Positions 3,772 to 63,270 of a stretch of 64,000 nucleotides of DNA are shown here, one piece after another. The stretch's first letter is position 1, and each line of letters opens with the position of its first letter. Both the position numbers and the translations under genes were made by a program. The notes under the pieces were generated by a model. The model did no database searches, was not told the origin of the DNA, and saw only the letters and a list, made by a program, of their open reading frames with translations. The stretch comes from Planctomycetota bacterium. GTDB taxonomy: Bacteria > Planctomycetota > SZUA-567 > H5-PLA8. Where the stretch lies: NCBI GenBank assembly GCA_027493525.1, contig JAOSKN010000004.1, positions 14,868 through 78,867 on the forward strand, read 5' to 3'.

Positions 3772-4875
3772 ATGACGCGCCAGCCTTTCGACCCAAAGAC
3801 TCCCTGTGCCGCGCTGCTGCTCGCGGCCTGCGCGAGCCTGGCCGCCGGCGAGGAGCCCGCCTTCCGGCGCGGGGTCAACGCGGCCGGCCCCGAGTTCGGC
3901 GGCGCGCTGCCCGGCAAGGTCCACAAGGATTACACCTTCAACAACGAGGCCACCTTCAAATACTTCGCCGAGAAGGGCCTCGACCTGTTCCGCGTGCCGC
4001 TCAAGTGGGAGCGCCTGCAAACCGAACTTGGCGGCGAACTCGACGCGGAGTACCTCCAGCACCTGAAGCAGAACGTGGCGTGGGCCAAGGCGCACGGCGG
4101 GCAGGTGCTCCTCGACCTGCACAACTACGGGCGGCGGCGCGTGAAACTCGGCGAGGCCTGGAAGAGCGTCGTCATCGACGTGGAAGTCGAGGGCGAGGTC
4201 CGCGTCACGCGCGCCCATTTCGTGGACATCTGGCTCAAGCTCTCCAAGGAGTTCAAGGACGAGCCGGCCGTCTGGGGCTACGGGCTGATGAACGAGCCGC
4301 ACGACATGGGCACGTCCGACTGGAAGGCGATCTCGAACGCCGCGGTCAAGGCGCTGCGCGATTCCGGCGACTTAAAAACGATCCTCGTCGCGGGCCTGCA
4401 CTGGTCCAACTCCGCGGACTGGGGCAAGCACAACGGCCCGAAGAGCTGGATCGACGACCCCTCCGGGCGCTTTCTGTACGAAGCGCACTGCTACTTCGAT
4501 TCCGACCGCAGCGGGTCTTACAAGAAATCCTACGAGGAGGAACTCAAGCGCGACCCTGACCTCGCCCGCGTCGGCGTGCGGCGGCTCAAGGACTTCGCGG
4601 ACTGGTGCAAGGAGAACAAGGTCGGCGGGTTCCTCGGCGAATTCGGCGTCCCGCGCGACGATCCGCGCTGGTATACCGAAGTCCTCAAGAACTTCATGCG
4701 CGGCCTCGACGAAGCCGGCATGGGCGGGACGTACTGGGCCGCCGGGATCTTCTGGGGCGATAACTATAAGCTGAGCGTCCATCCCGCCGAGAAGTTCACC
4801 CAGGACCGCCCGCAGCTCGCCGTGTTGCTCGAACATCTCGCGCCACGGCAGGGGACAGGGGACAGGGGACAGTAA
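3772..4875 (+). CDS. Glycoside hydrolase family 5 (cellulase-like), secreted
   Basis: RGVNAAGPEFG, LDLHNYGR, acid/base motif LMNEPH and nucleophile motif GEFG. Signal peptide from the ATG at 3772. The last codons (GTGDRGQ*) lie inside a heptamer array. Confidence 0.85.
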   Translation: MTRQPFDPKTPCAALLLAACASLAAGEEPAFRRGVNAAGPEFGGALPGKVHKDYTFNNEATFKYFAEKGLDLFRVPLKWERLQTELGGELDAEYLQHLKQNVAWAKAHGGQVLLDLHNYGRRRVKLGEAWKSVVIDVEVEGEVRVTRAHFVDIWLKLSKEFKDEPAVWGYGLMNEPHDMGTSDWKAISNAAVKALRDSGDLKTILVAGLHWSNSADWGKHNGPKSWIDDPSGRFLYEAHCYFDSDRSGSYKKSYEEELKRDPDLARVGVRRLKDFADWCKENKVGGFLGEFGVPRDDPRWYTEVLKNFMRGLDEAGMGGTYWAAGIFWGDNYKLSVHPAEKFTQDRPQLAVLLEHLAPRQGTGDRGQ

Positions 4876-5116
4876 GCAGTGAACAGTAAGCAGTGAACAG
4901 TAAGCAGTGAACAGTAAGCAGTGAACAGTAAGCAGTGAACAGTGAACAGTGAACAGTGAACAGTAAGCAGTGAACAGTGAACAGTGAACAGTGAACGGCA
5001 CACTAAATAGCAGCTTGCGGTAACTATAAAGGGGCCATGCTTTGCATGTCCATTTCATTCCACCGTTCACCGTTGACTGTTCACCGCTGACTGTTCACCG
5101 TTGACTGTTCACCGCT
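4849..5116. repeat. Inverted pair of 7-bp-period tandem arrays (CAGGGGA/CAGTAAG/CAGTGAA units, ~70-bp spacer, then CCGTTCA/CTGTTCA/CCGCTGA units)
   Basis: Direct reading: 4849-4996 is about 21 heptamers, and 5060-5116 is about 8 heptamers of the complementary type. Lies between GH5 (+) and the HAD gene (+). Confidence 0.95.
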
Positions 5117-5197
5117 GTTTTCCGCATGGCGCATGAAATTCCGCTGGCCGGCGGCTTACCATGGGGGTATAGTGTACTAGTTCACTAGGAGCCACCC

Positions 5198-5926
5198 ATG
5201 CCGCGCTACCGCGCCGTCTTTCTCGACTTCGGGAACACCCTGGCGCCGGAGAACCCCGTGCCGCTGCCCGCGCGGCTGCGGCGGACCTGCGCGGAGCGAT
5301 TCCCGGGCTTGCGCCTGAGCCTGCCCGACGAAGACGCGGCCTTGCAGCGCCTGCATCGAAGCTGCTCCGAGCGCGCCGGCTGGCCGGTTCATCCCGAGAC
5401 CAACGAAGGATACGAGGCCTTCTATACGCGCTGGGCGCGCGCGCTGCTCGAGGCGCTGGGCCTGCCGGCCGGGGAGAGCGAGCAGGTCGCCGCGGAGTTC
5501 GGGGAGGCCTTCCGCGACCTGTCCGACTCCACGCGCGTCCCCTACCCCGATTGCGTCGAGACGCTTGACCGGCTCGCGCGCGCCGGCTGCCGGCTCGCGG
5601 TGATCTCCAACAACGACGGCCGGCTCTTGCGGCGGATGACCTACATGGGCCTGGCCGGGCGCTTCGAGTTGATCGCGGACAGTTCGATCGTGCGCAGCAG
5701 CAAACCCGACGCGGGAATTTTCATGCGCGGCCTGGAGGGCCTGGGCGTCGCGCCGGCGGAGGTGCTCCACGTCGGCGACCTTTACGGCCCCGACGTGATC
5801 GGCGCGGGCCGCCTGGGCATCGACGCGGCGTGGCTGCGGCGCGGCGACCCGGAGCCGGCGGAACCTTCGCACGCGCCGAAGTACGTCATCGAACAATTGG
5901 CCGAGCTGCCGGCGCTGGTGGGGTAG
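5198..5926 (+). CDS. HAD-superfamily hydrolase (subfamily IA-like)
   Basis: N-terminal FLDFGNTL (motif I variant), ISNNDG, SSKPD and HVGDLYGPDVIGA motifs. Confidence 0.75.
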   Translation: MPRYRAVFLDFGNTLAPENPVPLPARLRRTCAERFPGLRLSLPDEDAALQRLHRSCSERAGWPVHPETNEGYEAFYTRWARALLEALGLPAGESEQVAAEFGEAFRDLSDSTRVPYPDCVETLDRLARAGCRLAVISNNDGRLLRRMTYMGLAGRFELIADSSIVRSSKPDAGIFMRGLEGLGVAPAEVLHVGDLYGPDVIGAGRLGIDAAWLRRGDPEPAEPSHAPKYVIEQLAELPALVG

Positions 5927-5962
5927 CGCTTGGATTGGGCAATGACAAATAGCCTAGTCGTT

Positions 5963-6000
5963 CCTGTTCACCGTTCACCGTTCACTGTAGACCGTTCACT
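5963..6000. repeat. Short heptamer array (CTGTTCA/CCGTTCA units) overlapping the 3' end of the minus-strand gene
   Basis: cctgttcaccgttcaccgttcactgtagaccgttcact. It encodes the C-terminal ...STVNGER* of 5968..7068. Confidence 0.9.
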
Positions 6001-7068: not shown

Positions 7069-7241
7069 GGGAAGGCACCACGCTAAACGACGGCATCGAA
7101 ACGCGAAACGTAAAACGTGAAATGGACCGCTGGCCCGGCCGCGAAGGCAAGCGCGGCATTCATGCGAGAAAAGTTCGCGCAGACGGCGCGATTCGGACGC
7201 AGGTGGACGTAAAAAGAGGAAGCGCGCGCGGTAGGCGGGCC

Positions 7242-9453: not shown

Positions 9454-9464
9454 GGGCCTCTAAT

Positions 9465-9847
9465 CTGTGATCTGTGGTCTGTGATCTGTGGTCTGTGGTC
9501 TGTGATCTGTGATCTGTGGTCTGTGATCTGTGGTCTGTGATCTGTGGTCTGTGATCTGTGGTCTGTGATCTGTGGTCTGTGATCTGTGGTCTGTGATCTG
9601 TGGTCTGTGATCTGTGGTCTGTGATCTGTGGTCTGTGATCTGTGGTCTGTGATCTGTGGTCTGTGATCTGTGGTCTGTGATCTGTGGTCTGTGATCTGTG
9701 GTCTGTGATCTGTGGTCTGTGATCTGTGGTCTGTGATCTGTGGTCTGTGGTCTGTGATCTGTGGTCTGTGATCTGTGGTCTGTGATCTGTGGTCTGTGGT
9801 TCGTAGCACAGATTACAGATTACAGATTACAGAATACAGATTACAGG
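9465..9847. repeat. 336-bp microsatellite (about 48 CTGTGAT/CTGTGGT heptamers), 6-nt spacer, then a 41-bp inverse array (ACAGATT units)
   Basis: Read directly. It is the longest array in the window and starts 12 nt after the parA stop. Confidence 0.97.
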
Positions 9848-10925: not shown

Positions 10926-12558
10926 ATGCGTCGAAACAAAGCCACGGAGGCGGTGCGCTGGGCGCTCGCGCTCGCGGCATGCTGCGCCGGGGCGGGGGAG
11001 CTGCGCGCGGCCGATCTGAAGCCGGCGCTCGAAAAGAAGCTCGCCGAGGTGCTCCAGGAGCCCGTCGCCATCGGCGCCTACCGGCTCGGCCTGGACCCCC
11101 CGCTCGCCGTCCTCGAGAACCTGCGCATCGGCGAGGCCGTGCCCGAAACCGGCGGGCATCCGCTGGCCGAAGTCGAGCGCCTCACGGTCGAATACATCCC
11201 CTCCGCGCTGCTCCTGGGCGGGACCTTCTTCAAGTCGATGGAATTTTCGGGCGCGCATTTTTACGTCGGCGCCGACCGGCGCGGGCACAGCAATTTCCAG
11301 GCGTTCCTCGAGAAGCTGCTCGCGCGGCGCGAGAAAGAGGCCGACCTTCCGGGGCTCGGCGACCTGAACTTCCGCGGCGTGGCGCTCACCTTTTACGCCC
11401 CCAAGGACTTGACCGCGCCGCGGGGCGAACTCGCCCCCGACCCCGTCACCGTGCGCTTGGCCGCGCTGAGCCTGCGCAATCTCTCGGCGCCCCAGCCGAA
11501 GCGATCCCGCGCGCGCGCCGGCGCCCGATCCGTGGATCAAGCTCGCCTTCGAAGAGCTGGTCGTGGACGCGCCCATCGCGGGGCGCGAGCCCGCCAACGC
11601 GCAGACCGCGCGCGGGGAGGTGCTCCGCGAGGGCCTGCGCGTCGCGCGCGGTGAGGCCGAGCTGCGCACGGAGGCCGGCCGCCCCAAGCTGCTCATGCTC
11701 CGCCGCGTGAAACTCGAGGCGCTCCGCGCGCGAAGCTACCTGCCCAGCCCCGGCGAGGCCGAGACCCTCGCGCGCATCTGGAACACCCTCCGCGTCGGCC
11801 TGGCCGGCAAGCCCGGCGAGCGCGCCGAACCCGCCGGCGGCTGGTCGGTCTACCTGTACGACCTCAAGGCCGAGGGCGGCCTCGTCGAGTTTGCCGGGCC
11901 GGATCCCCACGGGCGCACGGCCTACTGGCGCCTGGACGACCTGATGCTCGAGACGCAACAGTTCGGCGTCGGCCCGCTCGCCCGCTCGCCCAAGGACCGT
12001 CCCGGCTTCCTCAGGCTGGAATCCCCCACCGCCAGCAGCGAAGGCAACGGGCGCGTGCGCATGGAATGGAAGCGGCTCAGCGGCAGCCACCCGGAATGGA
12101 CCTACCTGCTCGAACTCGAACTCCGCGGCCTGGCGCTCCCCGCGCTCAGCACCCGCCTGGGCAATAAGGCCGACGCCGGCTTCGTCCGCGGGGACCTCGA
12201 CGCGAAATTCTCTGGCCCAACCGTCGCCGGCCGCCTCGACTGGTCCGGCTCCCTCACCGTCAGCCAGGACACGCAACTCGCCGATCCCGGCCGTTCCGAA
12301 CGGCGCTCGCGCAGCCTCCAACGCCTGGCCACCGGCGAGCCCATCCAACCCATTCTCATCACCGGCACGCTGCAGGATCCGCGCATCGAGGTGCCCGACT
12401 ACGCGAAGCACGCGCTGCAAGAGGTCTTCGACGGGATCGTGGACAACAAGGTCACGCGTTTCGTCGGCGACGTGGTGGGAAGCACCGTCCGCGGCGTTGG
12501 AAAGGTGCTGGAGCGCGTCCCCGTCCTCGGCCCGCTCTTTGGCGGAGATGACGAATAG
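10926..12558 (+). pseudogene. AsmA-like / DUF748-like envelope protein, split by a frameshift
   Basis: Signal peptide in ORF 10926..11654. The sequence continues sensibly in ORF 11563..12558, whose frame stays open upstream (...PAPDPWIKLAFEELVVDAPI...). The frame switch is near the C4 run 11490-11493. Confidence 0.6.
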
Positions 12559-12595
12559 AGTTCCGAGTTCCGAGTTCCGAGTTCCGAGTTCCGAG
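12559..12595. repeat. Heptamer array (AGTTCCG x5)
   Basis: agttccgagttccgagttccgagttccgagttccgag, immediately after the stop codon at 12556-12558. Confidence 0.95.
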
Positions 12596-12674
12596 ATGGT
12601 TTGTATTGTAACTTATTTACTATATTATAGTTACATGAAAAAATAAAAGCGTTTACAGCCCTCTCTCCGCTGGT

Positions 12675-12682
12675 GTATATAC
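12675..12682. promoter_or_regulatory. Candidate GntR/HutC-type operator core (GTATATAC) upstream of the regulator gene
   Basis: The palindrome GTATATAC fits the GT-M-TA-K-AC type consensus. It lies 36 nt upstream of the ATG at 12718 in a locally AT-rich spacer. Confidence 0.3.
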
Positions 12683-12717
12683 CACTATAAGACCATAATA
12701 GGACCAATGTAGAAACC

Positions 12718-25022: not shown

Positions 25023-27954
25023 GTGCCCGCACATGGCAAGCTCGTTTCAGGGGGGCTCCTGGACGAGATCTATCAACGGCTCGACCCGCGCCGCCTGTTC
25101 CAGAAATTGGAACTGACCGAACGCGGCGCGCGCTTCACCGGACGCTGCCCAAGCTGCGGGCAGAAGAGCCTCTACGTCCTGCGCTACGATCCGCGCTATC
25201 CGGGACTGAAGGCGCGCTGCAACCGGCTCAACCATTGCGGCTTCGCGCTCTCCGCCTGGGATTACCTTCGGCAGGTCGAGGGCGTCGCCGAGGCCGACGT
25301 CCTGCGCACCCTCGCCGAGCGCGCCGGCGTCGACCTGTCGAAGCGCAAAGGGGCCGATCCCGAGCGGGCCGCGGAGGCCTGGCGCCGGCGCGAGCGCCGC
25401 GCGGCGCTCTGCGAGCGCTTCTGGACTTGGGCGACCGAACGGCTTTGGGCGGAAGCGCGCCATCCGGAGAGCGAAGCGGCCCGCACCGTCGCTTTCCTGG
25501 AGGCGCGCGGGTACGGCGAGCCCCTCGCCCGCGCGATGGGGCTCGCCTACCTTCCGCCCGCCGAGCAGGCGCGGGCCTTTCTGAGCGGGGGAGCCGGGGT
25601 CCGGGGTCCGGACTCCGGAGGACGCGGCGCCGCCAAGCCCGCACGGGGACCTTCAGGGCCTGCCGTTCCTGGATCCAGCTTTCGAGCGCCGCGACGCCGC
25701 GGGCGCGCGGATCTACACCCTGGCCATTCCCTATCCCGAACTGCGCAGCCTCGTCGCCCGCGCGACCGTCGCCGACTTGCCCGACGACGCGCCCAAGTAC
25801 CGGTATCCGAAGGGCCTCAAACTCGACGCGCCCGCCTATCTCCGCGCCGTGGACCGCCGCAAGGCCGTCGTCGTGGTCGAAGGTTTCCTGGACGCCGCCC
25901 TGGCCCACGCGCTGGCGGGAGGAGAAGCGGCAGGCTCCGCACCGCCCGGAACCCAGCCCCCGGAACCCAGCCCCCGGCTTCTCGGCCAGCTCGTCGCGAC
26001 CGGGACCAACCGCCTCAACCGCGCGCAGCTCGAAGCCCTCCAACGCGCGGGCGTCCGCGAACTGGTCCTCTGCTTCGACGCCGACGACCCGGACCCCGCG
26101 CGCGGCGCCGGCGCCCGGGGCACGCTCGAGACCCTCGACCGCCTCGCCGAGGCCGGGACGTTCTTCCCGCGCGTCCTGCGCCTGCCCGCCGAACTGGGCT
26201 GCAAGGACCCCGACGAGCTGCTCACCCGGCACGGCGCGGAGGTCTTCGAAGGCCTCTTCGAGACGCACACGCGGAGCGAAGCCGAGTTCCGCGCGGAGGT
26301 GCTGCTGGGACTCGGAACGGCTCACCACAGAGGCACAGAGGACGCAGAGGGCCACAGAGGGGAGTCTGGGAACGGCACGGCCGCCGCCGTTTCCCCCCTC
26401 CCTTCACGGGAGGGTGCAGGGGGAGGGCCTGAACAGGAAAATTCCTTGTCCCCCGGTGTCCGGCCCCCGGCGTCCGGCCCCCGCATCGAAGCGGTTCTCG
26501 CCGCGCTGGCCGAGGCGCTGGAACGCGAAGCCGCGCGCCCCGCGCGGGCGCTCTTCGTCGCCGAGCTGACGCGCCTAGTCGCGGCGGGGCTGGGGCTCGA
26601 CGAGGCCGCGCTCGCCGCGCGGCTCGAACCGTTCCGCGCCCTGGCCGCGCAGCGCCGCCGCGCGGAGCTGCTCCAGCGGGCCGCGCTGGAGGTCCAGACC
26701 GGGCTGGGCGGCTCGACGCGCGAGGCCGCGCCCGGCGAAGAAGCGCTGGCGCGCGCGGAAAGCGCGCTCCGCGAGGGGCTCGAACGCGCCGCCGCGCTGC
26801 GCGCCGATGCCGGGCTCAAGGACGTCCTCGCCCCGGTCAGCCTCGGCGGGTATCGTGCGGCGGTGCTGGAGCGCCCCGATTTTCTCGAGACGCCCTATCG
26901 CAAGCTCGACGAGGCCGCTGCGATCCACCCCGGCCGTATTACCCTCGTCGCCGCGCGCCCCAGCCACGGCAAGACGACCTTTCTTCTTAATCTGCTCGTC
27001 CACTGGCTGAAGGTTTACCCCGAACGCCGCTTCGTGTACTTCAGCTACGACGGCCCGCGCGAGCAGCTCCTCAGCCAGCTCGTCAGCCGCGTCACGCGCC
27101 GTTACGCCCTGCGCGAGGTCGAGGACGCGCTTCGCGGCGACGTCGATCCCGGGTCGCACCCGGAAGCCGAAGAACTCGCCGAACGCACCCGCGCGGCGCT
27201 GGCCTGGCTGGAGGCGCAGGGGCTCGAGCGCCGCCTCTTTATCGTGGACCGCGCGCTGAGCGCCGGCGAACTCGGCCGCGCCGCGAAGGCCATCGCCGCG
27301 GGCGGGCCGCTGGGCGCGATCATGGTCGATTACATCCAGCAGGTCCGCCCCGACCGCGGCGCCGGCAAGGCGCTCGACTCGCGCCAGCGCGAAGTCGGCT
27401 ACGTCTCGCGCACGCTCCAGGCGCTCGCCCAGGAACTCGGCGTCCCCGTCGTCGCCGCGGCGCAGCTCAACCGCGTCAGCGAATCCACCGGCAAGACCGA
27501 CCGCCCGCGCCTCTGGCAACTCCGCGAGGCCGGCGACCTGGAGCAGGACGCGACCACCGTCTACGGGCTCTACAATCATCACCAGGCCGCCGCCGAGGCC
27601 CAGCCCTTCGACGACGGCGCCCCAGCGACCATGGGCCTCAGCGCCTGGAGCGGCGGGCCGGTGCTGGGCCTGAAAACGAACGGGAACGGCAACGGGCACG
27701 CCAGGAAGAACCCGCGCCGCAAGCGCACCGAGACCGAAGCCCTCATGGACGCGCTCAACCCCCAGGTCGATACGGCCGTCCTCGCCGCCGCCGGCCGCTG
27801 GACCGCTCCCGGCGCGCTCCGTTCGGTGGCCCTCGACGTGGAGGTCCTCAAGGCCCGCCACGGTCGCACCCACGCCCGCGTCGCCCTGACCTACGACCTC
27901 ATCGCCAATCACATCACCGACGGGCGCAGCGACGGGGAAGGGGAACTCCAGTAA
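25023..27954 (+). pseudogene. Primase-helicase fusion (Zn-finger + Toprim primase, DnaB-family helicase domain), frameshifted by a 7-bp tandem duplication
   Basis: N-terminal CPSCGQKS...CNRLNHC zinc finger. Toprim-like VVVVEGFLDA...LVLCFDADD. Helicase motifs AARPSHGKTTFLLN (Walker A), IMVDYIQQV (Walker B) and AAAQLNRVSE. The frame switches at CCGGGGTCCGGGGT (25594-25607). Confidence 0.8.
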
Positions 27955-28111
27955 GGCTGTGATCTGTAATCTGTATTCTGTGATCTGTAACAGCAAGACG
28001 GGATCCGATAAGGCTGTGATCTGTAATCTGTATTCTGTAATCTGTAACAGCAAGACGGGATCCGACAGATCGCCGATCACCGACCACAGATCACAGACTA
28101 CAGATTACAGG
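27955..28111. repeat. Two copies of a 58-bp unit built from CTGTGAT/CTGTAAT heptamers, followed by an inverse ACAGAT-type array
   Basis: aaggctgtgatctgtaatctgtattctgt[g/a]atctgtaacagcaagacgggatccga occurs twice, then ...ccacagatcacagactacagattacagg. Starts right after the stop at 27952-27954. Confidence 0.95.
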
Positions 28112-28191: not shown

Positions 28192-29805
28192 ATGCGGATG
28201 CTGATGCTGCTGGCGGCGGGATGCTGTGCCACGCAGGCCCTGGCCGCGGCCTGGCCGCCTCCGGAGCGGCTTCTCGACTGGAAGCCCGGCGTGGCCGGCG
28301 GCATCCCCGAAATCCCGGTGGCCATAGCGCTGAAGCCCGCCGACCTGCCTGCCGACGGAAAGACCGACGCTTCCGCCGCGATTCAGAAAGCCATCGACGC
28401 GGTCCAGGTCCCCGGCGCGGTGCTCCTGCCGGAAGGCGCCTTCCGCCTCGAAAAGCGGCTCAGCCTCCGAAGCGGCGTCGTGCTGCGCGGCGCGGGGCTC
28501 GATAAGACCCGCCTCGTCGTCAACGCGCCCAACTCGACTTCAGGCGGGAGCGTCGAAATGCGCGGCGAGAAGGGCGGGGAGGAGTTCGCCATCGCCTCCG
28601 GCGCCGCGCTGAACTCCACCCGGATCACCCTCGCCGCCGCCGCCGGCCTCCAGCCCGGCGCGCTGGTCTGGGTCTACGCCGACAACGACCCCGCGCTCAT
28701 GTATACCAAGCCCGAGTGGAAGCAGAATTGGGCCGAGAACTCCATGGGCCAGGTGCTCCACGTGAAAGCCGTCCAGGGCGCGGACGTGACCCTCGATACG
28801 CCGCTCTACCTCGACTACAAGGCCGAATTCAAGCCGCGCCTGCGCGTCCTGTCCCCGATCCGCCGCGCCGGCCTCGAAGACCTCCACATCCTGCGCGAGG
28901 ACCGGGCCGAGGATTCCATCGTCGGCATCTTCTACGCCGAGGACTGCTGGGTGCGGAACGTCGAGACCGAGCGCTGCATGCGCTACCACATCGACATCCG
29001 CGCCAGCCGCCGCGTCACCGTCGAGAGCTGCTACGCGCATCACGCCCACGACCGCGGCGGCGGCGGGCACGGCTACGGCATCGAGATGACCGGCTGCGCC
29101 TCCGACTGCCTCGTCTGGAACTGCGTCCTGCACTCGCTGCGCCATGCCATGATCGTCCAGGTCGGCGCCAACGGCGGCGTCTACGCCTACAACTTCTCGT
29201 TCGACACCGCCGGCAGCGACAACGCGGGCAAGGCCTGGTGGCACTCCAACGACGTCTCCATCCACGGGCATTATCCCTACGCCCTGCTCTTCGAAGGCAA
29301 CGTCGTCCAGTGCATTGGGGTGGGGGACTATTGGGGCCCGGCCGGCCCGCGCATGACCTTCTTCCGCAACCGCATCGCCGCGCCCGAGAAGGAAGCCGAC
29401 CTCGCCGCTTACGCCAAGCTCGGCATCCACCCCAACAAGAGCGACCCCTGGCCGCGCTTCCAGATGAACCTCACCGTCAAGGACTCCTCCCACGGCTGCA
29501 ACGTCATCGGCAACACCTTCACCGACGGCGCGCCGCTCAAGATCGATCCGAGCTGCAAGGACACGCTCGCGGAAGGAAACCTCTTCGACGGGCAGCTCAA
29601 GTGGAACCAGGCCCAGCCCTGCCCGCTTCCCGCCTCGCTCTTCCTGAAGGAGAAGCCCGCCTTCTGGGGCGAGAAGCCCTGGCCGGCCATCGGCGCCGAC
29701 GTGGACGCCAAGGGCATGACGCCGATCCCGGCGCAGGATTGGTACGCGCGGATCAAGCGGGCCGGGAAGGGCGTGCCTTTTTTTAAAGTGAACAGTAAAC
29801 AGTGA
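28192..29805 (+). CDS. Secreted right-handed beta-helix protein (pectate-lyase superfamily / Pectate_lyase_3-like)
   Basis: Signal peptide MRMLMLLAAGCCATQALA after SD GGGAGG. DGKTDASAAIQKAIDA...LLPEGAFRL is typical of Pectate_lyase_3. The C-terminal ...KVNSKQ* is encoded by a heptamer array. Confidence 0.8.
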   Translation: MRMLMLLAAGCCATQALAAAWPPPERLLDWKPGVAGGIPEIPVAIALKPADLPADGKTDASAAIQKAIDAVQVPGAVLLPEGAFRLEKRLSLRSGVVLRGAGLDKTRLVVNAPNSTSGGSVEMRGEKGGEEFAIASGAALNSTRITLAAAAGLQPGALVWVYADNDPALMYTKPEWKQNWAENSMGQVLHVKAVQGADVTLDTPLYLDYKAEFKPRLRVLSPIRRAGLEDLHILREDRAEDSIVGIFYAEDCWVRNVETERCMRYHIDIRASRRVTVESCYAHHAHDRGGGGHGYGIEMTGCASDCLVWNCVLHSLRHAMIVQVGANGGVYAYNFSFDTAGSDNAGKAWWHSNDVSIHGHYPYALLFEGNVVQCIGVGDYWGPAGPRMTFFRNRIAAPEKEADLAAYAKLGIHPNKSDPWPRFQMNLTVKDSSHGCNVIGNTFTDGAPLKIDPSCKDTLAEGNLFDGQLKWNQAQPCPLPASLFLKEKPAFWGEKPWPAIGADVDAKGMTPIPAQDWYARIKRAGKGVPFFKVNSKQ

Positions 29806-30003
29806 GCAGTAAACAGTAACGGCTTCATCAACTAAAGTACCGTTCACCGTTCACCGTTCACCGTTCACCGTTCACCGTTCACCGTTCACCGTTTACCGTT
29901 TACCGTTTACCGTTTACCGTTTACCGTTTACTGTTTACTGTTTACTGTTTACTGTTTACTGTTTACTGTTTACTGTTTACTGTTTACTGTTTACTGTTTA
30001 CCG
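29788..30003. repeat. Inverted heptamer arrays: short GTGAACA/GTAAACA arm, 20-nt spacer, then a long (about 160 bp) CCGTTCA, CCGTTTA, CTGTTTA arm
   Basis: Read directly. It spans the convergent stops of 28192..29805 (+) and 29998..30994 (-). Confidence 0.97.
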
Positions 30004-30994
30004 CCAATCGATCACCACGCCCACGAAGCTCCGGTCCTTCGCGCGCAGCCTTTCGTAAACCTCCGTGGCGTCGGCGGGCTTGATGCGGTGGCTGACCAGG
30101 TGCGCGACCTTCAAGCGCCCGTCGCGGATTCCCTCCATCGTCGCCGTCCGGTTCAGCGCCATCGTGTACGGATAATACGGGTTCTCCTCGACGGGCACCT
30201 TCGGCTGGTGCGCGCCGATCAGCGTCAGCTCGCGGTGGATCAAATCCAGGTCGATCCGGAACGAGACCGGCTCGTAGACCGCCGAGGCCAGCACCAGCCG
30301 CCCGCGCAGCGCGAGGATCGAGATGGCCGTCTCGTACGCGCGATGATTGGCTGCGGCCTCGATGCAGCAGCTCACGCCCTTCCCGCCGGTCAGCGCCTTC
30401 ACGCGCGCCGCCGCGTCTTCCTGGCTCACGTCCACGACCGCGTCCGCGCCGAGTTCCTTCGCCATTTCGAGCCGCTTCGCGTCGGCGTCCAGCGCGATCA
30501 GCGGGCGCGCGCCGCATTGCCGGGCCAACTGCAAGATCAGGCTCCCCACCACGCCCTGGCCCACGATCGCGGTGGGCTCCAGCAGCCGCGGCGCGCCGCG
30601 TTCGACGATGTGATAGGCGACGCTGCCGAGCACCCCCAGCGTCGCGAGCGCCGGGTCGAGCCTCTCGGGCACGGGGGAGCAGGTTCACGCCGTTGGCCGG
30701 GATATTCGACGCCGAGGCGTGCGCGGCCGACGAGAGCACCCGCTGCCCGGCCGGCACCCCGCGCACCTCCGCGCCCACGGCCTCCACGATCCCGACGTGC
30801 GAATAGCCGATGTCGAGCGGCCTCCCTTCCTTCGCGGCCTCGTTGAGCTGCGCGATCTCGGTCCCGATCGAGATCTCCGTCCACTCCGTCCGCACCCGCG
30901 CCTCGTTGGGCTTCGGCGGCGGAAGCGGCTCCTCGATCACGACCACCCGCTTCCCATCGAACCGGAGCCGTCGTCGCGTCGTGGGCAAGGTCAT
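29998..30994 (-). pseudogene. Zinc-type medium-chain alcohol/polyol dehydrogenase, split by a +1 frameshift in a G5 run
   Basis: The N-terminal part (ORF 29984..30994) is sensible up to ...ANGVNLLP. The C-terminal part (ORF 29998..30672) carries Rossmann motif IVGQGVVGSLILQLA. The junction is at G5 30673-30677 (NLLP|VPERLDP). Confidence 0.8.
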
Positions 30995-31011: not shown

Positions 31012-31109
31012 GCCTGTAATCTGTATTCTGTTATCTGTGATCTGTATTCTGTACTTTCAGTGTTCCGTGCTCCGAATCAGATCACAGATCACAGATTACA
31101 GATTACAGG
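31012..31109. repeat. Inverted heptamer arrays (CTGTAAT/CTGTATT arm, 24-nt spacer, ACAGATC/ACAGATT arm)
   Basis: cctgtaatctgtattctgttatctgtgatctgtattctgtac...cagatcacagatcacagattacagattacagg. Lies downstream of minus-strand gene 31103..32260. Confidence 0.95.
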
Positions 31110-32806: not shown

Positions 32807-32930
32807 GGGCGGCAGCTTTCCGGTTTACGGGCGCAATTCAAAAACGTGAAACGTGAAAAGAAACGACCCAGTGACCTTCCCCACGAAAAGTGTAGTCCTC
32901 ACGTTTCACGCCTCCCCCTACAATATCCCC

Positions 32931-33464: not shown

Positions 33465-33604
33465 CCTGTGATCTGTAATCTGTAATCTGTAATCTGTAAC
33501 CAGCGAGCAGGGAATGGGTTGCGATGATCGCCTAAAGCATGCGTCTGCTTACAGAATACAGAATACAGAATACAGATCACAGATCACAGATCACAGATCA
33601 CAGG
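33465..33604. repeat. Inverted heptamer arrays (CTGTGAT/CTGTAAT arm, about 47-nt spacer, ACAGAAT/ACAGATC arm)
   Basis: Read directly. Starts 1 nt after the stop at 33462-33464. Confidence 0.95.
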
Positions 33605-35622: not shown

Positions 35623-35640
35623 CCGAGCACAGATTACAGA

Positions 35641-36636
35641 TTACCGCGCCGTCTTCACCGGCCGCCTCCGCTCCGCCGACCGGTACGCCGCCTCCGTCAG
35701 CCGCGCGACCTCCAGCGCGTACAGAGGCGGTTCGTACCCCTTCTTGCCCTGGATCCAGCCCACGAACGCGGCGTCCGGCGTGTCCGGCTTGTAGCTCTTC
35801 GGCGGCTCCGTCGGCTCGTTGTTGACCAGGAAGCTCCTTACGCTCCATTGGTGCAAGTGGATCACGATCGACCCGGCCGTCGTATGGATCGCCAGCCGCT
35901 CGTCGTGCCGCACCGCGTTGCCGATGGTGTTCAGCGAGAGCAGCGCGCCGTTCTTGCAGCGCACCGCCGCCGCCGTATTCACGTCCACGAAGCGCCCGTG
36001 GAAGTCCACCAGCGCGCTCACCTCCGTCGCCTGCGCCCCGGTCAGGAACAGCGTGGCGGCCACCAGGTGGCTTCCCGTGTCCATGAACATCCCGCCGCCG
36101 GACTGCTTGGGATCGAGCCGCCAGATCTTCTTCGGGTTGCCCTTGCCCTTCCCGCCCCAGCCCTGCGTCACGAAGGCCACCACCCCGCGCACCTCCCCGA
36201 ACTTGCCCGAGCGCAGCAGGTCGCGGACGTAGCGGTACACCGGCATGTGGTGCCGCTGGTAGCTGACGTGCAGGATCCGCTTCTTCCGCTTCGCCAGCGC
36301 CAGCAGCGCCTTCGAGTGCGCGCTCGAGATCGTCAGCGGCTTCTCGACCAGCACGTGCACCCCCGCGTTCAGCGCGTCGCGGATCTGCGCGAAGTGCTGG
36401 TTGTGCGGCGTGCTGATCAGCACCCCGTCCAGCGGTTCGCGCTTCAGCAGCTCCTTGTAATCCCCGTACAGGTTCAACGGCTTGCCCCACTCGGCGATGC
36501 ACGCCTCGGCGTTCGCCCGGAACGGATCGCACGCCGCGACCAGCTCGGCCCCCGGGATCGCCTTCAGCCGCGGGATGTGCGACCGCCGCATGTTGTTCCC
36601 GCAACCGATGAGGGCCAGACGCACGCGCTTCGCCAT
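35641..36636 (-). CDS. Gfo/Idh/MocA-family NAD(P)-dependent oxidoreductase
   Basis: N-terminal Rossmann motif RLALIGCGNNMRRSHIP. EKP motif (LVEKPL). Confidence 0.85.
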   Translation of the reverse strand: MAKRVRLALIGCGNNMRRSHIPRLKAIPGAELVAACDPFRANAEACIAEWGKPLNLYGDYKELLKREPLDGVLISTPHNQHFAQIRDALNAGVHVLVEKPLTISSAHSKALLALAKRKKRILHVSYQRHHMPVYRYVRDLLRSGKFGEVRGVVAFVTQGWGGKGKGNPKKIWRLDPKQSGGGMFMDTGSHLVAATLFLTGAQATEVSALVDFHGRFVDVNTAAAVRCKNGALLSLNTIGNAVRHDERLAIHTTAGSIVIHLHQWSVRSFLVNNEPTEPPKSYKPDTPDAAFVGWIQGKKGYEPPLYALEVARLTEAAYRSAERRRPVKTAR

Positions 36637-36711: not shown

Positions 36712-36874
36712 AGTTCCGAGTTCCGAGTTCCGAGGATCGGGTCTTTACCGCAGAGCACGCAGAGAGCGCGGAGGGGGCGAAATAGAAAAGGCAGTTCTCC
36801 GCGTGCTTTGCGTTCTCTGCGGTTCAAATCAGTTCCGAGTTCCGAGTTCCGAGTTCCGAGTTCCGAGTTCCGAG
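36712..36874. repeat. Two direct AGTTCCG arrays flanking a 77-bp imperfect palindrome built from CGCAGAG-type units
   Basis: Arrays at 36712-36734 and 36831-36874. Palindrome at 36747-36823 (accgcagagcacgcagagagcgcggag ... ctccgcgtgctttgcgttctctgcggt). Sits in a divergent promoter spacer. Confidence 0.9.
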
Positions 36875-41244: not shown

Positions 41245-41262
41245 TCTTCTCGCCGCGGCATC

Positions 41263-44891: not shown

Positions 44892-45224
44892 GCGGAAGAC
44901 AGTAACCTGCGCATGCGCATCGGCAACCGGCAAGCTGCCGTCCCTGGACGGAGCTTGGCAGGCCTTTGAGAATAAACGAAGTAGCGGTATTCTTCGCCGA
45001 GGTGAAGTGAGGTGGCATCGCACGACAGTAATCTGTGTTCTGCAATCTGTAAACCAAGTGGGCAGGGTTGAGCCTCCGCAGCTCGCTACAAAGCGGGCCA
45101 TGGTTTGACCTCTCACTTTGGTGCGAACCGTTGCCCAAGGAAGACTCTTGTCAACGGTTAGAAAGCGCCTCAAGATGAAAGGCCTGTTGGCGGCCAACAG
45201 GTGGTAATCGGTCAGGAATAATTC

Positions 45225-47309: not shown

Positions 47310-47354
47310 CACAGATTACAGATCACAGATTACAGATTACAGATTACAGATCAC
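47310..47354. repeat. Heptamer array (ACAGATT/ACAGATC x6), single arm
   Basis: cacagattacagatcacagattacagattacagattacagatcac. Located between convergent genes. Confidence 0.95.
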
Positions 47355-48304
47355 TGATTTCCCCCGTCCACCGGCACCAGAATAAGCCCCCGCGTCGTCC
47401 CGTTCCCCTCGCCGGCCGGGGTCTCGGGGACGAAGGGATTCTCCGCCTGGGTGACGGGCGCTTCCACGGGCGGGGATTCGGCACTCGGCGCGGGCGCTTC
47501 CGGCGGCGGCACGAACGCCGCGACCGGCGCCGGAACGGGCGCGGTCGCCTTCGCGTAGTCCTCGGCCGTGAGCATGAAAAACCGGTTGTCCGCGGTGAGG
47601 AAGACCACGAAGCGCGCGGCGTCGGTCGCGCCCGGCGTGAGTCCGAATTCGCGCTTCGGATCGACGCAGCCCAGGATCAGCGTCCGGTCGTCCGGCTGCG
47701 CTTGCCCCTTCAGGACCTTTTCGATGGCCAGCGTCAGGCGGTGCTGGTTCGCGCCCTGCTCCAGGCCCTGCACGCGCATCGTCCACACGTCGTCGGCCTG
47801 CGCGAAATGCCCCGCCGTCCCGTCCTCGAACTGGCTGAGGTGCGAAAGCCCCAGGCTCGGGAAGAGCCGCAGCCGCGGATTCGGCTCGCTCGCCACGACG
47901 GGCCGCTCGGTCTTCGCCGGCGCGGGCTCCTTCGGCGCGACAGGTTCTTTCACCGGGGCGGGCTGAGGGGCCTCGGCGGGTTGCGCGGGCGCCGTGCTCG
48001 TCTTCGCCGGCGCGGCCTCGGTTTGCGGCTTGGACACCGGCGCCGCGGTCGGAGGCGCCCCGCGCCCGAGCAGCACGAACGCCGCCAGCCCCACCGTCGC
48101 GGCCAGCGCCAGCCCCGCCAGCACCAGCGGCGTGGCGCTCGTCTTCGGCGCCGCCGCGAACCGCTCGCGCCCGTCCTCGCGGTCCAGCCGCTCGCGGCGG
48201 CCGGCGCGCGGCGCGCGCGTCTTGCGCACCGGCTCGTGACGGCGCAAGCCGCCCTGGCGCGGCAGGCGGTGGTAAACGCGGGAACTGTCGGCGGCGGCGG
48301 GCAT
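47351..48304 (-). CDS. Membrane-anchored Pro/Ala-rich hypothetical protein
   Basis: ATG at 48304 (MPAAADSS...). TM segment TPLVLAGLALAATVGLAAFVLL, a Pro-rich linker, then a globular domain (...FEDGTAGHFAQADDVWTMRVQGLEQG...). No family recognised. Confidence 0.55.
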   Translation of the reverse strand: MPAAADSSRVYHRLPRQGGLRRHEPVRKTRAPRAGRRERLDREDGRERFAAAPKTSATPLVLAGLALAATVGLAAFVLLGRGAPPTAAPVSKPQTEAAPAKTSTAPAQPAEAPQPAPVKEPVAPKEPAPAKTERPVVASEPNPRLRLFPSLGLSHLSQFEDGTAGHFAQADDVWTMRVQGLEQGANQHRLTLAIEKVLKGQAQPDDRTLILGCVDPKREFGLTPGATDAARFVVFLTADNRFFMLTAEDYAKATAPVPAPVAAFVPPPEAPAPSAESPPVEAPVTQAENPFVPETPAGEGNGTTRGLILVPVDGGNQ

Positions 48305-48345: not shown

Positions 48346-48408
48346 GGAACTCGGAACTCGGAACTCGGAACTCGGAACTCGGAACTCGGAACTCGGAACT
48401 CGGAACTA
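48346..48408. repeat. Heptamer array (GGAACTC x9)
   Basis: Read directly. Reverse complement of the AGTTCCG arrays at 12559 and 36712. Confidence 0.95.
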
Positions 48409-49025: not shown

Positions 49026-49122
49026 GCCCCCATTCTATCCCGGCCCCTACCGCGCGTGACGCGCACTTCCTGTTTACTGTTCACTGCTTACTGATTACTG
49101 TCATGTGCCCCGGAGGGACATC

Positions 49123-55219: not shown

Positions 55220-55573
55220 ATGCTCAAATACAAAGGCTATTACGGCAAGGCGCAGTACGACCCTGAAGCCGGCCTTTTGCACGGCGAGGTTCTAGGGCTG
55301 CGCGACGTGGTCACCTTCCAGGGCAAGAGCGTCGCGGAGATCGAACGCGCCTTCAAGGATTCCGTGGACGACTATCTCGATTTCTGCGCCTCGCGCGGCG
55401 AATCCCCCGAGAAGCCGGTCACCGGGAAGCTGCCGCTGCGGCTTAACCTGGCAACCCATCGCGAGCTCGCGATCTACGCCCGGCTGCATAACGTCAGCCT
55501 GAATGCGGCCATCAACGAATTGCTCGATGCCGCCCTCAACGAACGTTTGAGCGGCCAAGCCGCGCGCAAATAA
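55220..55573 (+). CDS. hicB: HicB-family antitoxin
   Basis: MLKYKGYYGKAQYDPEAGLLHGEVLGLRDVVTFQGKSVAEIERAFKDSVDDYLDFC...GKLPLRL...H. RHH-like C-terminus. Confidence 0.8.
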   Translation: MLKYKGYYGKAQYDPEAGLLHGEVLGLRDVVTFQGKSVAEIERAFKDSVDDYLDFCASRGESPEKPVTGKLPLRLNLATHRELAIYARLHNVSLNAAINELLDAALNERLSGQAARK

Positions 55574-58517: not shown

Positions 58518-58920
58518 CGCCGACTCCTTGAAAAATGAGCACCGCGACCACTCTAGAGTCTGAGAAGCCATGGAGCAACGCCGCGTGAAGCCGGGCCGGT
58601 GGGCCTCATCAGAAAGGAACCCGCAACGCCCCGATTGCTGCACGCCCTCGACCTTCCATCGTTATAAGGAAGCGCCGCGAACGCCGCCTCTGCCGCCCTG
58701 GCTTCGAACGTCGCGCCACTCGGCCGCCTTCGGCCCTAAGCCCAGACCCGTTCCCGAGCCTGAGAACCAAAAGCATTAAGCGTGTAAACCTATACAAAGA
58801 AATATGTAACAATTCTATTGATAACCGATAAAACTACCCCGGCTCGTGGATTATATTCCTTCTACACGCCTCCTTGAAAGGGCCGCATATGGATCCCTGC
58901 TCTCGCCGACGCCGCGTCCG

Positions 58921-59310
58921 TAGGGACGCGACGAAAATAGCCCAGCCTTTCAAGGCTGGGACCATGAACGCCGCGTCACGAACTCAGTCCCGCAGGGACG
59001 GCTGAGGGGTACGCGCCCGCCGCCGAGCGGCAACGGCGATTGTTCATCGTTCATGGTCCATTCATCATCGTTCATCGACGGCCCAAGGGGCCGGGCCACT
59101 CGGGCAATGAACAATGGAAAATGAACGTTGAACGATGACCCATCGCCGTTCATCGCCCGGCACGGGGCGGCTGCGCCGACCCGTGGCACGCAAGCGAGCA
59201 GGATGCTCGCGGTACGGGAAGAACCAGAAGACGCGCGGGCGGGACGCCCGCGCGAGCCGGCGGGGACGCCGGCGCTACAGCGGCTGCGCCGACCCGTGGC
59301 ACTTGCGGGC
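58921..59310. repeat. Composite repeat block: X unit (GGGACGCGACGAAAATAGCCCAGCCTTTCAAGGCTGGGAC...CAGTCCCGCAGGGACG), a 125-bp palindromic ATGAACG-heptamer element, and REP hairpins
   Basis: X unit 58921-59000 recurs at 61468-61550. Palindromic element 59031-59155 recurs at 62336-62462. REP hairpins at 59157-59300. Confidence 0.85.
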
Positions 59311-59326
59311 AAGGTGCCCGCGGTCC

Positions 59327-61285: not shown

Positions 61286-61700
61286 CTGTAATCAGTGATC
61301 AGTGATCGGACGCGATGTAATGAACGTGGGTCGATCCTCGGGTGTCGCGCCCGCAGCCGTGCCACGGGTCGGCGCTGCCGCCGTAGCGCCGGCGTCCCCG
61401 CCGGCTCGCGTGGGCGTCCCGCCCGCGCGTCTTCCAGTTCATCCCGTTTCGCCCGCCGCCGCGTCCCCCAGGGACGCGACGAAAATAGCCCAGCCTTTCA
61501 AGGCTGGGACCGTGAGCGCCGCCCCACAAGCCCAGTCCCGCAGGGACGACTGAAGCGCAGGCGTACCCCGCAGCCGTCCCTGCCGAGCATCCTCCAACGT
61601 GCTGGCTGGGTACAAGTTGCAACCGCTTGCGTTGACTTGCTGCGGCATGTTCCATAGGCTCTGGATTTACTAGGCCGCACGAATGCGGTCGAATACATGT
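61286..61700. repeat. Composite repeat block ending in copy 1 of a ~190-bp leader element (61511-61700)
   Basis: Short CTGTAAT/CAGTGAT array, REP hairpins 61359-61440, X unit 61468-61550. The leader is >90% identical by eye to 62477-62667. Confidence 0.85.
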
Positions 61701-61713
61701 TTGATGCTTCGTC

Positions 61714-62335: not shown

Positions 62336-62667
62336 CCACCAGCCCGATGAACGACAATTGGTCATCGTTCAACGTTCATTTCCCATTGATCATTGCCGAG
62401 TGGACCGGCCCACGGGACTGTCGATGAACAATGACGAATGGACAATGAACGATGAGCCATGGCCGTTGCCGTTCAAGCGGCCGTCCCGCCCCACAAGCCC
62501 AGTCCCGCAGGGACGACTGAAGCGCAAGCGTCCCCGAAGTCGTCCCTGCCGAGCATCCTCCAATGTGCTGGCTGGGTACAAGTTGCAACCGCATGCGTTG
62601 ACTTGCTGCGGTATGTTCCATAGGATCTGGATCTACTAGGCCGCACGAATGCGGTCGAATACATGTT
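62336..62667. repeat. Second copy of the 125-bp palindromic heptamer element (62336-62462) plus copy 2 of the ~190-bp leader (62477-62667)
   Basis: Direct comparison with 59031-59155 (reverse complement about 85% identical) and with 61511-61700. Confidence 0.85.
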
Positions 62668-63027
62668 ATGCCTCACTTGCCGTCCAACCTCGCTGAGCAC
62701 ATGGCGGAGTACTTCAGCCGCGATGCGCGACATTGGCCGGGCGCCCGAGCCGACCACCGGGCGCGGTTGATCGCGCTAGCGTTCGATGACGCGACGGCTT
62801 GGTACGTCGCGCCACTGACTCAAGCGTGGAGCACCCTTCTTGCGACGGGATATACCGCGGAGCACGGATCAACGATCGCGTTGACAACGCCCGGCCAAGA
62901 CACCGACGCTATATTGCGATTTCGCGAGCAACGGCACGCTGAGACGAACGACAGAGGTTTGGCGTATGAACTTAGCTTCGCGTCGTCGGAGGATGTCTGG
63001 CCCGGCTGGTTTTCACTCGAAGCGTGA
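62668..63027 (+). CDS. Orphan hypothetical protein (119 aa)
   Basis: The ATG immediately abuts the end of leader copy 2 (MPHLPSNLAEHMAEYFSRDARHWPG...). Composition is not Arg/Pro-noise. No family recognised. Confidence 0.5.
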   Translation: MPHLPSNLAEHMAEYFSRDARHWPGARADHRARLIALAFDDATAWYVAPLTQAWSTLLATGYTAEHGSTIALTTPGQDTDAILRFREQRHAETNDRGLAYELSFASSEDVWPGWFSLEA

Positions 63028-63028
63028 G

Positions 63029-63129
63029 GCATAACCAGCCGTTGCAGCGGACCGGGCGGGCGTCGCGGTCCTCGTGATTCGAGAGTGCGTCCGGTGCCCG
63101 CCCGGCCGCTGAACGTCGATCCGTTAGGC
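63029..63129 (+). other. attC-like imperfect palindrome 2 (101 bp)
   Basis: GCATAAC ... GTTAGGC (fits GTTRRRY). Arms ccgttGcagcggAccgggcgggc / gcccgcccgg-ccgctg-aacg give about 20 bp of pairing with two single-base bulges. Starts 2 nt after the stop codon. Confidence 0.4.
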
Positions 63130-63187
63130 GCCCAAGATGCCGCCCGGATCGCCTCTGCGCCCCTCCGTGCCTCCGTGGTAAGCCGTT

Positions 63188-63270
63188 CAATCGTCAATCC
63201 GCAATCGTAAATCGTAAATCTTCCCCGCACCCATACGCGAACTATCCCTCGGAACTCGGAACTCGGAACT
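63188..63270. repeat. Heptamer arrays (AATCGTC/AATCGTA type, then GGAACTC x3)
   Basis: caatcgtcaatccgcaatcgtaaatcgtaaatc ... ctcggaactcggaactcggaact. Ends 2 nt before the stop of the S1/P1 nuclease gene. Confidence 0.9.

Follow-up and report, generated by a model that had tools for sequence, protein, structure and literature searches.

A stretch of 64,000 nt from a Planctomycetota bacterium (assembly GCA_027493525.1, contig JAOSKN010000004.1, positions 14,868 to 78,867 of the forward strand; G+C ~68%; hereafter the window) was analysed for the tandem arrays of 7-nt units that lie between its genes. The arrays are real, heptameric, intergenic and lineage-specific; many of them abut stop codons or provide them, and those arranged as inverted pairs can form long hairpins.

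Arrays were detected with Tandem Repeats Finder (TRF), by a scan for self-match at a lag of 7 nt and by direct reading of the sequence (Table 1). TRF reported periods of 7 and of its multiples 14 and 21 at the arrays. The lag-7 scan of the window gave 32 regions, 1,697 nt in all, against a mean of 1.8 regions (46 nt) and a highest count of 5 regions in 100 dinucleotide-preserving shuffles, and a preliminary description of the window, in which the period had been called strictly heptameric and far above chance, was upheld on this point. With the same self-match scan no arrays were found in the window at lags of 8-13, and few at lags of 4-6. Four of the 32 regions were GC-rich low-complexity coding sequence; the remaining 28 arrays comprise 1,588 nt, correspond to ~0.44 arrays per kb and make up 11% of the intergenic DNA of the window, and 93% of their bases are intergenic, versus an intergenic share of 20.6% for the window as a whole. 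All 18 loci of the preliminary description hold repeats of the kind described, as judged by TRF and direct reading, but those at 35629, 45026 and 61291 consist of 2-3 units each, and the degenerate ones at 59042-59143 and 62336-62455 (68% unit identity) represent two copies of one 137-nt dispersed palindrome. The supposed CGCAGAG heptad family at 36750-36825 was actually a palindrome of 9-nt period, and two weak arrays (7096-7122 and 32840-32863) were absent from the earlier list.

Table 1. Heptanucleotide arrays and associated palindromes in the window (coordinates are window positions)
Feature	Coordinates	Strand	Units	Position and remarks
A1, left arm	4849..4996	+	CAGGGGA ×3.4, then CAGTAAG/CAGTGAA ×18	GH5 stop TAA (4873-4875) inside
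A1, right arm	5061..5116	-	8 units complementary to family A, TTCACCG/TTGACTG (other strand CGGTGAA/CAGTCAA)	64-nt spacer between arms
Single family-A array	5961..5999	-	GTTCACC ×5	Overlaps final codons and stop (5968-5970) of minus-strand LPG-synthase-like gene
Weak array	7096..7122		CGAAACG ×3.7	5' intergenic region
B1, long arm	9458..9800	-	TCTGTGA/TCTGTGG, 48 units	Begins 4-9 nt past ParA-like gene stop
B1, short arm	9808..9846	+	ACAGATT ×5.6	7-nt spacer
Single family-C array	12558..12595	-	GAGTTCC ×5.4, 100% identity	Directly 3' of stop TAG; no fold, z = 0.09
B2, left side	27947..28060	-	57-nt tandem duplication, each copy CTGTGAT/CTGTAAT ×5 + spacer	Begins at DnaB/Toprim stop (27954)
B2, right arm	28065..28110	+	ACAGATC-type ×6.6	
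A2, short arm	29787..29819	+	CAGTGAA/CAGTAAA ×4.7	Stop TGA (29803-29805) of gene 28192-29805 inside
A2, long arm	29838..30003	-	23.7 units	Stop (29998-30000) of convergent alcohol dehydrogenase (ADH) gene inside
B3, left arm	31014..31053	-	CTGTAAT ×5.7	19 nt upstream of ADH start (30994, -)
B3, right arm	31078..31108	+	CAGATCA ×4.4	Stop (31103-31105) of beta-helix gene inside
Weak array	32840..32863		AAACGTG ×2.4	Divergent promoter region
B4, left arm	33466..33499	-	CTGTAAT ×4.9	Begins 1 nt past stop TAG (33462-33464)
B4, right arm	33550..33603	+	ACAGAAT ×3.9 + ACAGATC ×4.6	50-nt spacer
Short array	35629..35644	+	ACAGATT ×2.3	Provides GFO oxidoreductase stop (35641-35643); adjoins ordinary GC-rich hairpin 35583-35622
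Family-C array	36712..36734	-	AGTTCCG ×3.3	Divergent region between GFO gene and gene 36976-37389
9-nt-period palindrome	36750..36825		Not heptad	Folds at -50.8 kcal/mol; AGTTCCG arrays on both sides
Family-C array	36831..36874	-	AGTTCCG ×6.3	Direct orientation relative to 36712 array
Imperfect units	45026..45055	-	TAATCTG-like, n = 3	Under TRF and lag-7 thresholds (direct reading)
Single family-B array	47311..47359	+	ACAGATT ×7	Stop (47351-47353) of gene 47351-48304 (-) inside; no significant fold
Single family-C array	48346..48407	+	GGAACTC ×8.9, 100% identity	38-42 nt upstream of start 48304; no fold
Imperfect array	49070..49101	-	CTGTTTA ×4.6	Just upstream of ribosome-binding site and start (49123) of UDP-glucose dehydrogenase gene, 21 nt before start
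Family-D palindrome, copy 1	59019..59155		Arms GTTCATC... / ...CAATGAA, degenerate heptads	137-nt dispersed element
Short array	61291..61307	+	ATCAGTG ×2.4	Upstream of CheR-like gene
Family-D palindrome, copy 2	62345..62481			Inverted relative to 59019-59155; 85% identical over 138 nt
Array	63187..63220	-	TCAATCG/TAAATCG ×4.9, 81% identity	
Family-C array	63248..63270	+	CTCGGAA ×3.3	Ends 2 nt from S1/P1 nuclease stop (63273-63275)

Units were written with C first for the naming of families. Family A (CAGTGAA, CAGTAAG, CAGTAAA, CGGTGAA and CAGTCAA) occupies ~6 loci of the window, family B (CAGATCA, CAGATTA, CAGACCA and CAGAATA) ~9 loci and family C (CGGAACT, or AGTTCCG) 5 loci; family D (CGATGAA and CAATGAA) is degenerate, and CAGGGGA, CGATTGA and CGTGAAA are minor units. 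The neighbouring arrays at 63187 and 63248 belong to unrelated unit families. Variant units are grouped in blocks, as at 29838-30003, where TTCACCG ×7 is followed by TTTACCG ×6 and TTTACTG ×10, and higher-order repeats are present, namely a 14-nt repeat in B1 (9464-9800; 24 copies, 97% identity) and the 57-nt duplication at 27947-28060, which comprises the array together with its spacer. When flanks were compared, family-C arrays had nothing in common outside the repeat itself. No array contains four runs of three or more G, the number taken for a G-quadruplex; CAGGGGA ×3.4 (4849-4872), the sole array with G-runs, has three.

Gene calls were made from GC3 (G+C content at third codon positions) and verified against Pfam. 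Twelve gene 3' ends lie inside an array or 0-10 nt from one, and seven supported genes terminate on a codon that belongs to an array unit (4873, 5968, 29803, 29998, 31103, 35641 and 47351). The intergenic location and the concentration at gene 3' ends that had been described earlier were thus confirmed; the stronger statement, that almost every array starts near a stop codon, holds for these twelve ends but not for five loci in 5' or divergent regions (36712-36874, 48346-48407, 49070-49101, 31014 and 32840), of which those at 31014, 48346 and 49070 stand 19-42 nt upstream of start codons. In the window, the stop-bearing orientation of families A and B faces the incoming gene in 10 of 10 cases, probably by inheritance from a few ancestral arrangements. 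As a general rule this orientation was rejected, as it fails in loci L016 and L018 of other genomes and some units are stop-free on both strands.

Inverted pairs were found at 8 of ~20 loci (4849/5061, 9463/9808, 27955/28065, 29787/29838, 31014/31078, 33466/33550, 59042/59105 and 62336/62422), so that the hairpin-forming arrangement is frequent, at about half of the loci, rather than characteristic of most of them, as had been proposed; the pair at 36712/36831 is direct, not inverted. Watson-Crick complementarity between the arms of the eight pairs is 54-94%, with spacers of 7-64 nt, and the arms are grossly unequal (21 vs 8, 48 vs 5.6 and 4.7 vs 23.7 units) and are therefore not kept at equal length. 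Folded as RNA, the pairs gave imperfect stems of 30-45 bp with energies from -42 to -96 kcal/mol and z-scores between -3.5 and -11; for B1, the final 93 nt gave -58.6 kcal/mol (z = -10.3), and the B3 hairpin gave -56.8 kcal/mol (z = -11.2). Folding z-scores were near 0 for single arrays (AGTTCCG and the one at 47311). Both strands were folded, and selection of one strand at the RNA level was rejected, since the more stable strand is not consistently tied to the direction of transcription. The four family-B pairs have common outer termini (GC-CTGTRATCTGT ... ACAGATYACAG-GC) but do not share loops, and A-pair loops bear no relation to B-pair loops. A conserved interior of the type seen in miniature inverted-repeat transposable elements (MITEs) was observed in the two family-D copies (85% over 138 nt); the B pairs share termini alone, and single arrays share neither. 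No direct repeats that could represent target-site duplications flank the B or D elements.

Canonical terminators with a hairpin and a U-tract had been described as nearly absent, and scans of the window for a hairpin followed by a T-tract agreed, with 12, 12 and 8 sites where shuffles gave an expectation of 13.3, 12.6 and 15.2. Heptad hairpins are followed by GGCCC-, GGCAC- or GGCTCC-type sequence without a T-run. The scanner placed no terminator-like site on a heptad pair; three sites in 58941-59254 belong to flanking or module-Y hairpins.

Array-free relatives were identified. Three sister Planctomycetota assemblies (L238-L240; 65% G+C) share 13 orthologues with the window (55-81% amino-acid identity), and no heptad array was found in their ~21 kb with ~15 intergenic regions, nor in the relative loci L118, L129 and L115-L117. 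Sister assemblies include GCA_045863855.1 and GCA_015075375.1. Three orthologous intergenic regions carry arrays solely in the window, namely those preceding the genes for UDP-glucose dehydrogenase (array-free in L118) and CheR and the one separating the GFO gene from its divergent neighbour, and the arrays therefore represent a recent gain specific to the lineage of the window. The divergent GFO region measures 222 nt without arrays in relatives versus 339 nt with two arrays in the window; the GFO orthologue is 75% identical and of equal length (331 amino acids), and the TAATCTG ×2.3 array of the window begins exactly at the conserved stop position. The ferritin gene of the sister metagenome-assembled genome (MAG) is followed by an ordinary hairpin and a T8 tract, whereas the window ferritin gene is followed by a hairpin without a U-tract and then by an array. 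Orthologous intergenic sequences are too diverged for exact insertion sites to be placed by alignment, with hints of single proto-units (ACTGATC and CACCTCG) in relatives. Gene order is heavily rearranged between the window and L238/L239; CheR-ADH, DnaJ-like-epimerase and GFO with its divergent neighbour are still adjacent. Arrays are found in one of three adjacencies conserved with the sister MAG and in many broken ones, numbers too small to support an association of arrays with synteny breakpoints. A metagenome scan for contigs of the same species returned partial matches only, at 40-51% identity.

Three CAGAYYA units were searched for across 185,579 species genomes and were found at more than 114 loci. 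Among the matches listed are Bacteroidota, Acidobacteriota, Chloroflexota, Streptomyces and Planctomycetia, with complete isolate chromosomes included, and many of these also hold other heptamer families, variant-unit gradients and inverted pairs. Family B was nevertheless rejected as a special cross-phylum element: in viral contigs it gave 14 loci, against 60 for the arbitrary permuted control CGAAYYA, and many heptamers therefore form arrays. A universal CAG/CTG core was likewise rejected, as it occurred in 9 of 44 other arrays, against 6.2 expected, among the matches listed, which come from many phyla.

A close analogue was found in a siphovirus-type prophage of ~61% G+C with flanking bacterial genes (L232, 1-13935, and longer copies L233-L235), a description of which was not found in the literature searched. 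In its co-directional tail module, which encodes a tail completion protein, a tape measure protein, a tail assembly protein and tail protein J, arrays occupy 11 of 13 gaps in the order stop codon, (CAGTRAW)n, short loop, (WYTACTG)n, ribosome-binding site and start codon; they begin 0-6 nt past the stop codons, and the hairpin loop AAAGGCAAAGGCAAAAG is conserved. Prophage and window thus share the CAGTRAW unit family and this layout, and the 53-nt higher-order modules of the prophage resemble the 57-nt duplication of the window; the prophage differs in its siphovirus type, in having arrays in nearly all gaps of the tail module and in its conserved loop. The prophage arrays are identical across five metagenome assemblies, and the sole difference between L233 and L235 in 15,128 nt is an indel of 35 nt (5 units) within an array. 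Related prophages L236 and L237 (71% and 63% tail-protein identity) have arrays at matching positions between cistrons, occupying 11 of 16 and 5 of 11 gaps; the unit differs among the three related prophages (CAGTAAT, CAGTGAG and CAGAAAA) and is homogeneous within each genome. A further contig from IMG/VR (L193; 66% G+C) contains three inverted pairs of (GAGTTCG)n...(CGAACTC)n at 1660-1965, 2984-3086 and 4562-4696, whose unit is one base from family C of the window; two of the pairs are near-identical in loop and right flank, and the arrays adjoin start codons of minus-strand genes.

The preliminary description had not assigned the arrays to a described element class, but comparable arrays have already been described in Xanthomonas, as cyanobacterial short tandemly repeated repetitive (STRR) sequences, in Beggiatoaceae and in Chloroflexus, and the architecture in Xanthomonas matches that of the window. 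Heptanucleotides are reported as the most abundant class of long simple sequence repeats (SSRs) in many prokaryotes, with polymerase slippage invoked for the period (Mrazek 2007, as presented in PMC4679880 and PMC4692102). The GGGAATC repeats of Xanthomonas (Rehm et al. 2015) are 89-93% intergenic, with the upstream open reading frame (ORF) 28 nt and the downstream ORF 160 nt away; 70-75 of ~185 repeats are in inverted (convergent) arrangement with hairpin or cruciform potential, arrays of 2-26 copies are transcribed and differ in length and sequence among related species, and no function was found (PMC4692102). They share with the window the intergenic tandem 7-nt units near upstream gene ends and the inverted pairs. 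They differ in being one G-rich, G-quadruplex-capable family at ~0.04 arrays per kb, whereas the window has several non-G-rich families (only CAGGGGA ×3 is G-rich) at the ten-fold density given above, stop codons within arrays and a host of another phylum.

TAACTGA repeats (MacGregor 2015) occur sporadically in Beggiatoaceae, cyanobacteria and Bacteroidetes, with indels in 7-nt steps between strains, and the cold-shock protein Csp, S1 and CsrA were put forward as proteins that might bind them (PMC4679880). Like the window arrays they are intergenic, of genome-specific abundance and sporadic in distribution, but they mostly have 2-6 copies directly upstream of start codons and include a single inverted set. 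In Nostoc, deletion of heptamer repeats changed promoter output, and a binding partner was postulated (bioRxiv 10.1101/2022.06.06.494920); Chloroflexus carries (GATAGRA)n satellites (PMC6749651). Cyanobacterial STRRs, including GGGGA(C/T)T of Nostoc, resemble the window in that several heptamer families per genome are dispersed intergenically, whereas neither inverted pairs nor fusion to stop codons is reported to be typical of them and their hosts are cyanobacteria. The window unit CAGTCAA (5061-5116) is a rotation of STRR3 CAACAGT, and CAGGGGA is one base off GGGGACT; these likenesses are probably coincidental, because the control scans show that many heptamers form arrays. In manner of working, the inverted pairs may be compared with repetitive extragenic palindromic (REP) sequences, bacterial interspersed mosaic elements (BIMEs) and enterobacterial repetitive intergenic consensus (ERIC) sequences, which are dispersed imperfect palindromes, intergenic and usually transcribed, at gene 3' ends or between cistrons; the 137-nt family-D palindromes are about the size of ERIC. 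REP and ERIC sequences are not built of tandem heptads, and no conserved tetranucleotide is seen in the window. REPs are mobilised by REP-associated tyrosine transposases (RAYTs). New in the present case are the Planctomycetota host, the ~ten-fold higher array density, the array-free sisters and the prophage with arrays in nearly every intercistronic gap.

Taken together, the arrays are best read, with a probability of roughly 0.6, as heptanucleotide SSRs of the long-SSR or STRR type that are driven by slippage and fill the non-coding space allowed to them, the inverted pairs being extragenic hairpins and not canonical terminators. Slipped-strand mispairing or unequal exchange would lengthen and shorten the arrays, with step sizes of 7 nt as well as 14 and 57 nt, and a few unit families (CAGTRAA, CAGAYYA and CGGAACT) would have spread to many loci within one lineage. 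Selection would keep the arrays in non-coding DNA, so that they would expand up to a constraint and halt at the functional end of the upstream gene or at the promoter or ribosome-binding site of the next one. An array may also take over the native stop codon, because families A and B contain TGA or TAA in sense orientation. As RNA or single-stranded DNA, the inverted pairs would form long imperfect hairpins that pair in many registers, and by analogy with REP/BIME or ERIC sequences they would most likely act as 3'-end or intercistronic hairpins that influence mRNA ends and stability, while single arrays probably have no dedicated function. The earlier suggestion of slippage-prone hypervariable loci received indirect support from the blocks of variant units, the 14- and 57-nt higher-order repeats, the absence of arrays in sisters and the 5-unit indel of the prophage.

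Several observations weigh against slippage as the whole account. The prophage analogue is the sole place where copy number was seen to change in steps of 7 nt, and the 35-nt indel itself may be an assembly difference. The period of 7 is not accounted for by pure slippage, and neither is the presence of identical units at separate loci without common flanks (AGTTCCG at 5 loci and CAGAYYA at 9). In addition, array positions that are conserved while units change across three prophages hint at function or directed copying.

Among the alternatives, the inverted pairs might be the working transcription terminators or mRNA 3'-end stabilisers of the lineage, selected in place of the hairpin-plus-U-tract, as would fit the twelve abutting 3' ends, the long stems with z down to -11, the number of canonical terminator-like sites (32 vs ~41 expected), the GC-rich dispersed hairpins at other 3' ends of the window and the ferritin comparison. 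We regard this as doubtful. A role as unconventional terminators, one of those first proposed, is not general because single arrays, about half of the loci when direct arrangements are included, do not fold, because arrays stand in 5' and divergent promoter regions, some of them only 19-42 nt from a start, and because prophage arrays lie within a co-directional tail module that efficient terminators in 11 of 13 gaps would block. The B3 pair is likewise placed between co-directional genes, 19 nt from the downstream start; the unequal arms and the indifference of the stabler strand to transcription direction also speak against such selection, and sister genomes manage without arrays.

Some room is left for a lineage-specific trans-acting factor, either an altered replication or repair enzyme or a heptad-binding protein, that makes, copies or maintains the arrays as adjustable hairpin modules, rather than junk, after stops and between cistrons, because the same units recur without shared flanks, sisters are array-free and, in the three diverged prophages, units turn over in concert at array positions that are kept. 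We consider such a factor rather unlikely. Lower still stands the proposal, also among the roles suggested in the preliminary description, that the arrays are binding platforms for a DNA- or RNA-binding protein that reads 7 nt, for example an RNA chaperone of the cold-shock-domain or S1 type, with units co-evolving with the factor. Cold-shock domains contact ~6-7 nt. Identical units at many loci with non-conserved flanks, the array positions held by related prophages while each genome keeps its own homogeneous unit, the altered promoter output in Nostoc and the binders proposed for TAACTGA repeats could be explained in this way, but at least three unrelated unit families in one window, copy numbers from 2 to 48, block-wise drift of units inside a single array, the lack of a candidate among the window proteins and the absence of a universal CAG core elsewhere make it improbable.

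An equally poor prospect is given to mobile palindromes (MITE-, REP- or ERIC-like) whose heptad arms are incidental and which were dispersed by a transposase or RAYT-type enzyme with its gene in another part of the genome. The family-D copies are alike even in the loop and lie among other dispersed modules, all four B pairs share outer termini, a 57-nt module is duplicated at 27947-28060, two L193 hairpins are near-identical in loop and flank, and the prophage hairpins share their loop. Against these stand the lack of visible target-site duplications, the unrelated loops of A and B, the single arrays without conserved flanks and the transposase complement of the window, in which the sole transposase is of IS256/Mutator type and no Y1 (RAYT) transposase was found among the ORFs scanned against Pfam; moreover, mobility leaves the 7-nt tandem structure unexplained. 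Assembly artefacts can be set aside as very improbable, since, although the copy number of the 338-nt array at 9463-9800 is uncertain because it is longer than short reads, variant-unit patterns differ locus by locus, similar arrays occur at the more than 114 public loci, complete isolate chromosomes among them, and the prophage arrays are identical in five independent metagenome assemblies.

As for the surroundings of the arrays, Pfam-supported genes of the window encode a GH5 cellulase, a HAD hydrolase, a ParA-like ATPase, a DnaB/Toprim helicase-primase, Kelch, WD40 and ankyrin repeat proteins, an agmatine deiminase, an ABC-F protein, a UDP-glucose dehydrogenase, an IS256/Mutator transposase and an S1/P1 nuclease, and their strongest named homologues are Planctomycetota MAG sequences. 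Neither a tRNA nor an Rfam match at gathering score was found within the window. Genes of mobile-element type, encoding a ParA-like ATPase (8635-9453), a Uma2 endonuclease (21440-21991), a PIN toxin (24354-24797), DnaB/Toprim (25777-27954) and a HicB antitoxin (55220-55573), are dispersed across it, and a portion of the window may derive from integration of an element or be plasmid-like. The IS256/Mutator-family transposase gene (42388-43578, -) sits where sister MAGs have an epimerase gene directly convergent with a GDP-mannose-dehydratase-like gene. The zinc-type ADH gene (29984-30994, -) falls in two frames, with ADH_N in 29984..30994 and ADH_zinc_N in 29998..30672, which indicates a frameshift near 30.7 kb and thus a pseudogene or a sequencing error; the stop codons of both frames fall within the heptad array.

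Other repeats of the window are distinct from the arrays. A 99-nt tandem repeat (2989-3205) is coding sequence of an ankyrin-repeat protein (2920-3615, -), and a 43-nt dispersed repeat (56218-58049) falls in the region of the WD40-repeat gene; each reflects a protein repeat and has no relation to the heptads. A mosaic of non-heptad dispersed repeats was found at 58893-59326, 61349-61701 and 62345-62667, and also at 39998-40077, 41262-41298, 43954-43996 and 50549-50605, mostly at gene 3' ends; its modules are GC-rich hairpins such as GCGCGGGCGTCCCGCCCGCGCG and CGTGCCACGGGTYGGCGCAGCC and a ~180-nt module at 95% identity. GC-rich hairpin modules recur at gene 3' ends at 39998-40077, 59209-59302 and 61383-61462, and at 41262, 50573 and 61358. 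The family-D palindromes are embedded in this mosaic at 58.9-62.7 kb, and no convincing gene was found in 61.3-63.2 kb. Between the AGTTCCG array at 12558 and a GntR/LacI-type regulator gene, 120 nt (12600-12720) are strongly AT-rich and hold the small palindrome GTAACTTATTTACTATATTATAGTTAC and a promoter-like match.

In practical terms, the array-borne stop codons set the C-termini of seven window proteins, and the arrays will disrupt short-read assemblies and can mislead gene callers. The window provides a test case for the question, posed since the STRR work of 1990 and the survey of 2007, of why heptamers dominate the long SSRs of prokaryotes, and it also bears on how one unit reaches hundreds of intergenic sites per genome and on whether arrays act. 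The prophage family is small enough for experimental testing. The chief value of the finding lies in the existence of array-rich and array-free sisters, a comparison of whose gene content could expose the causal factor.

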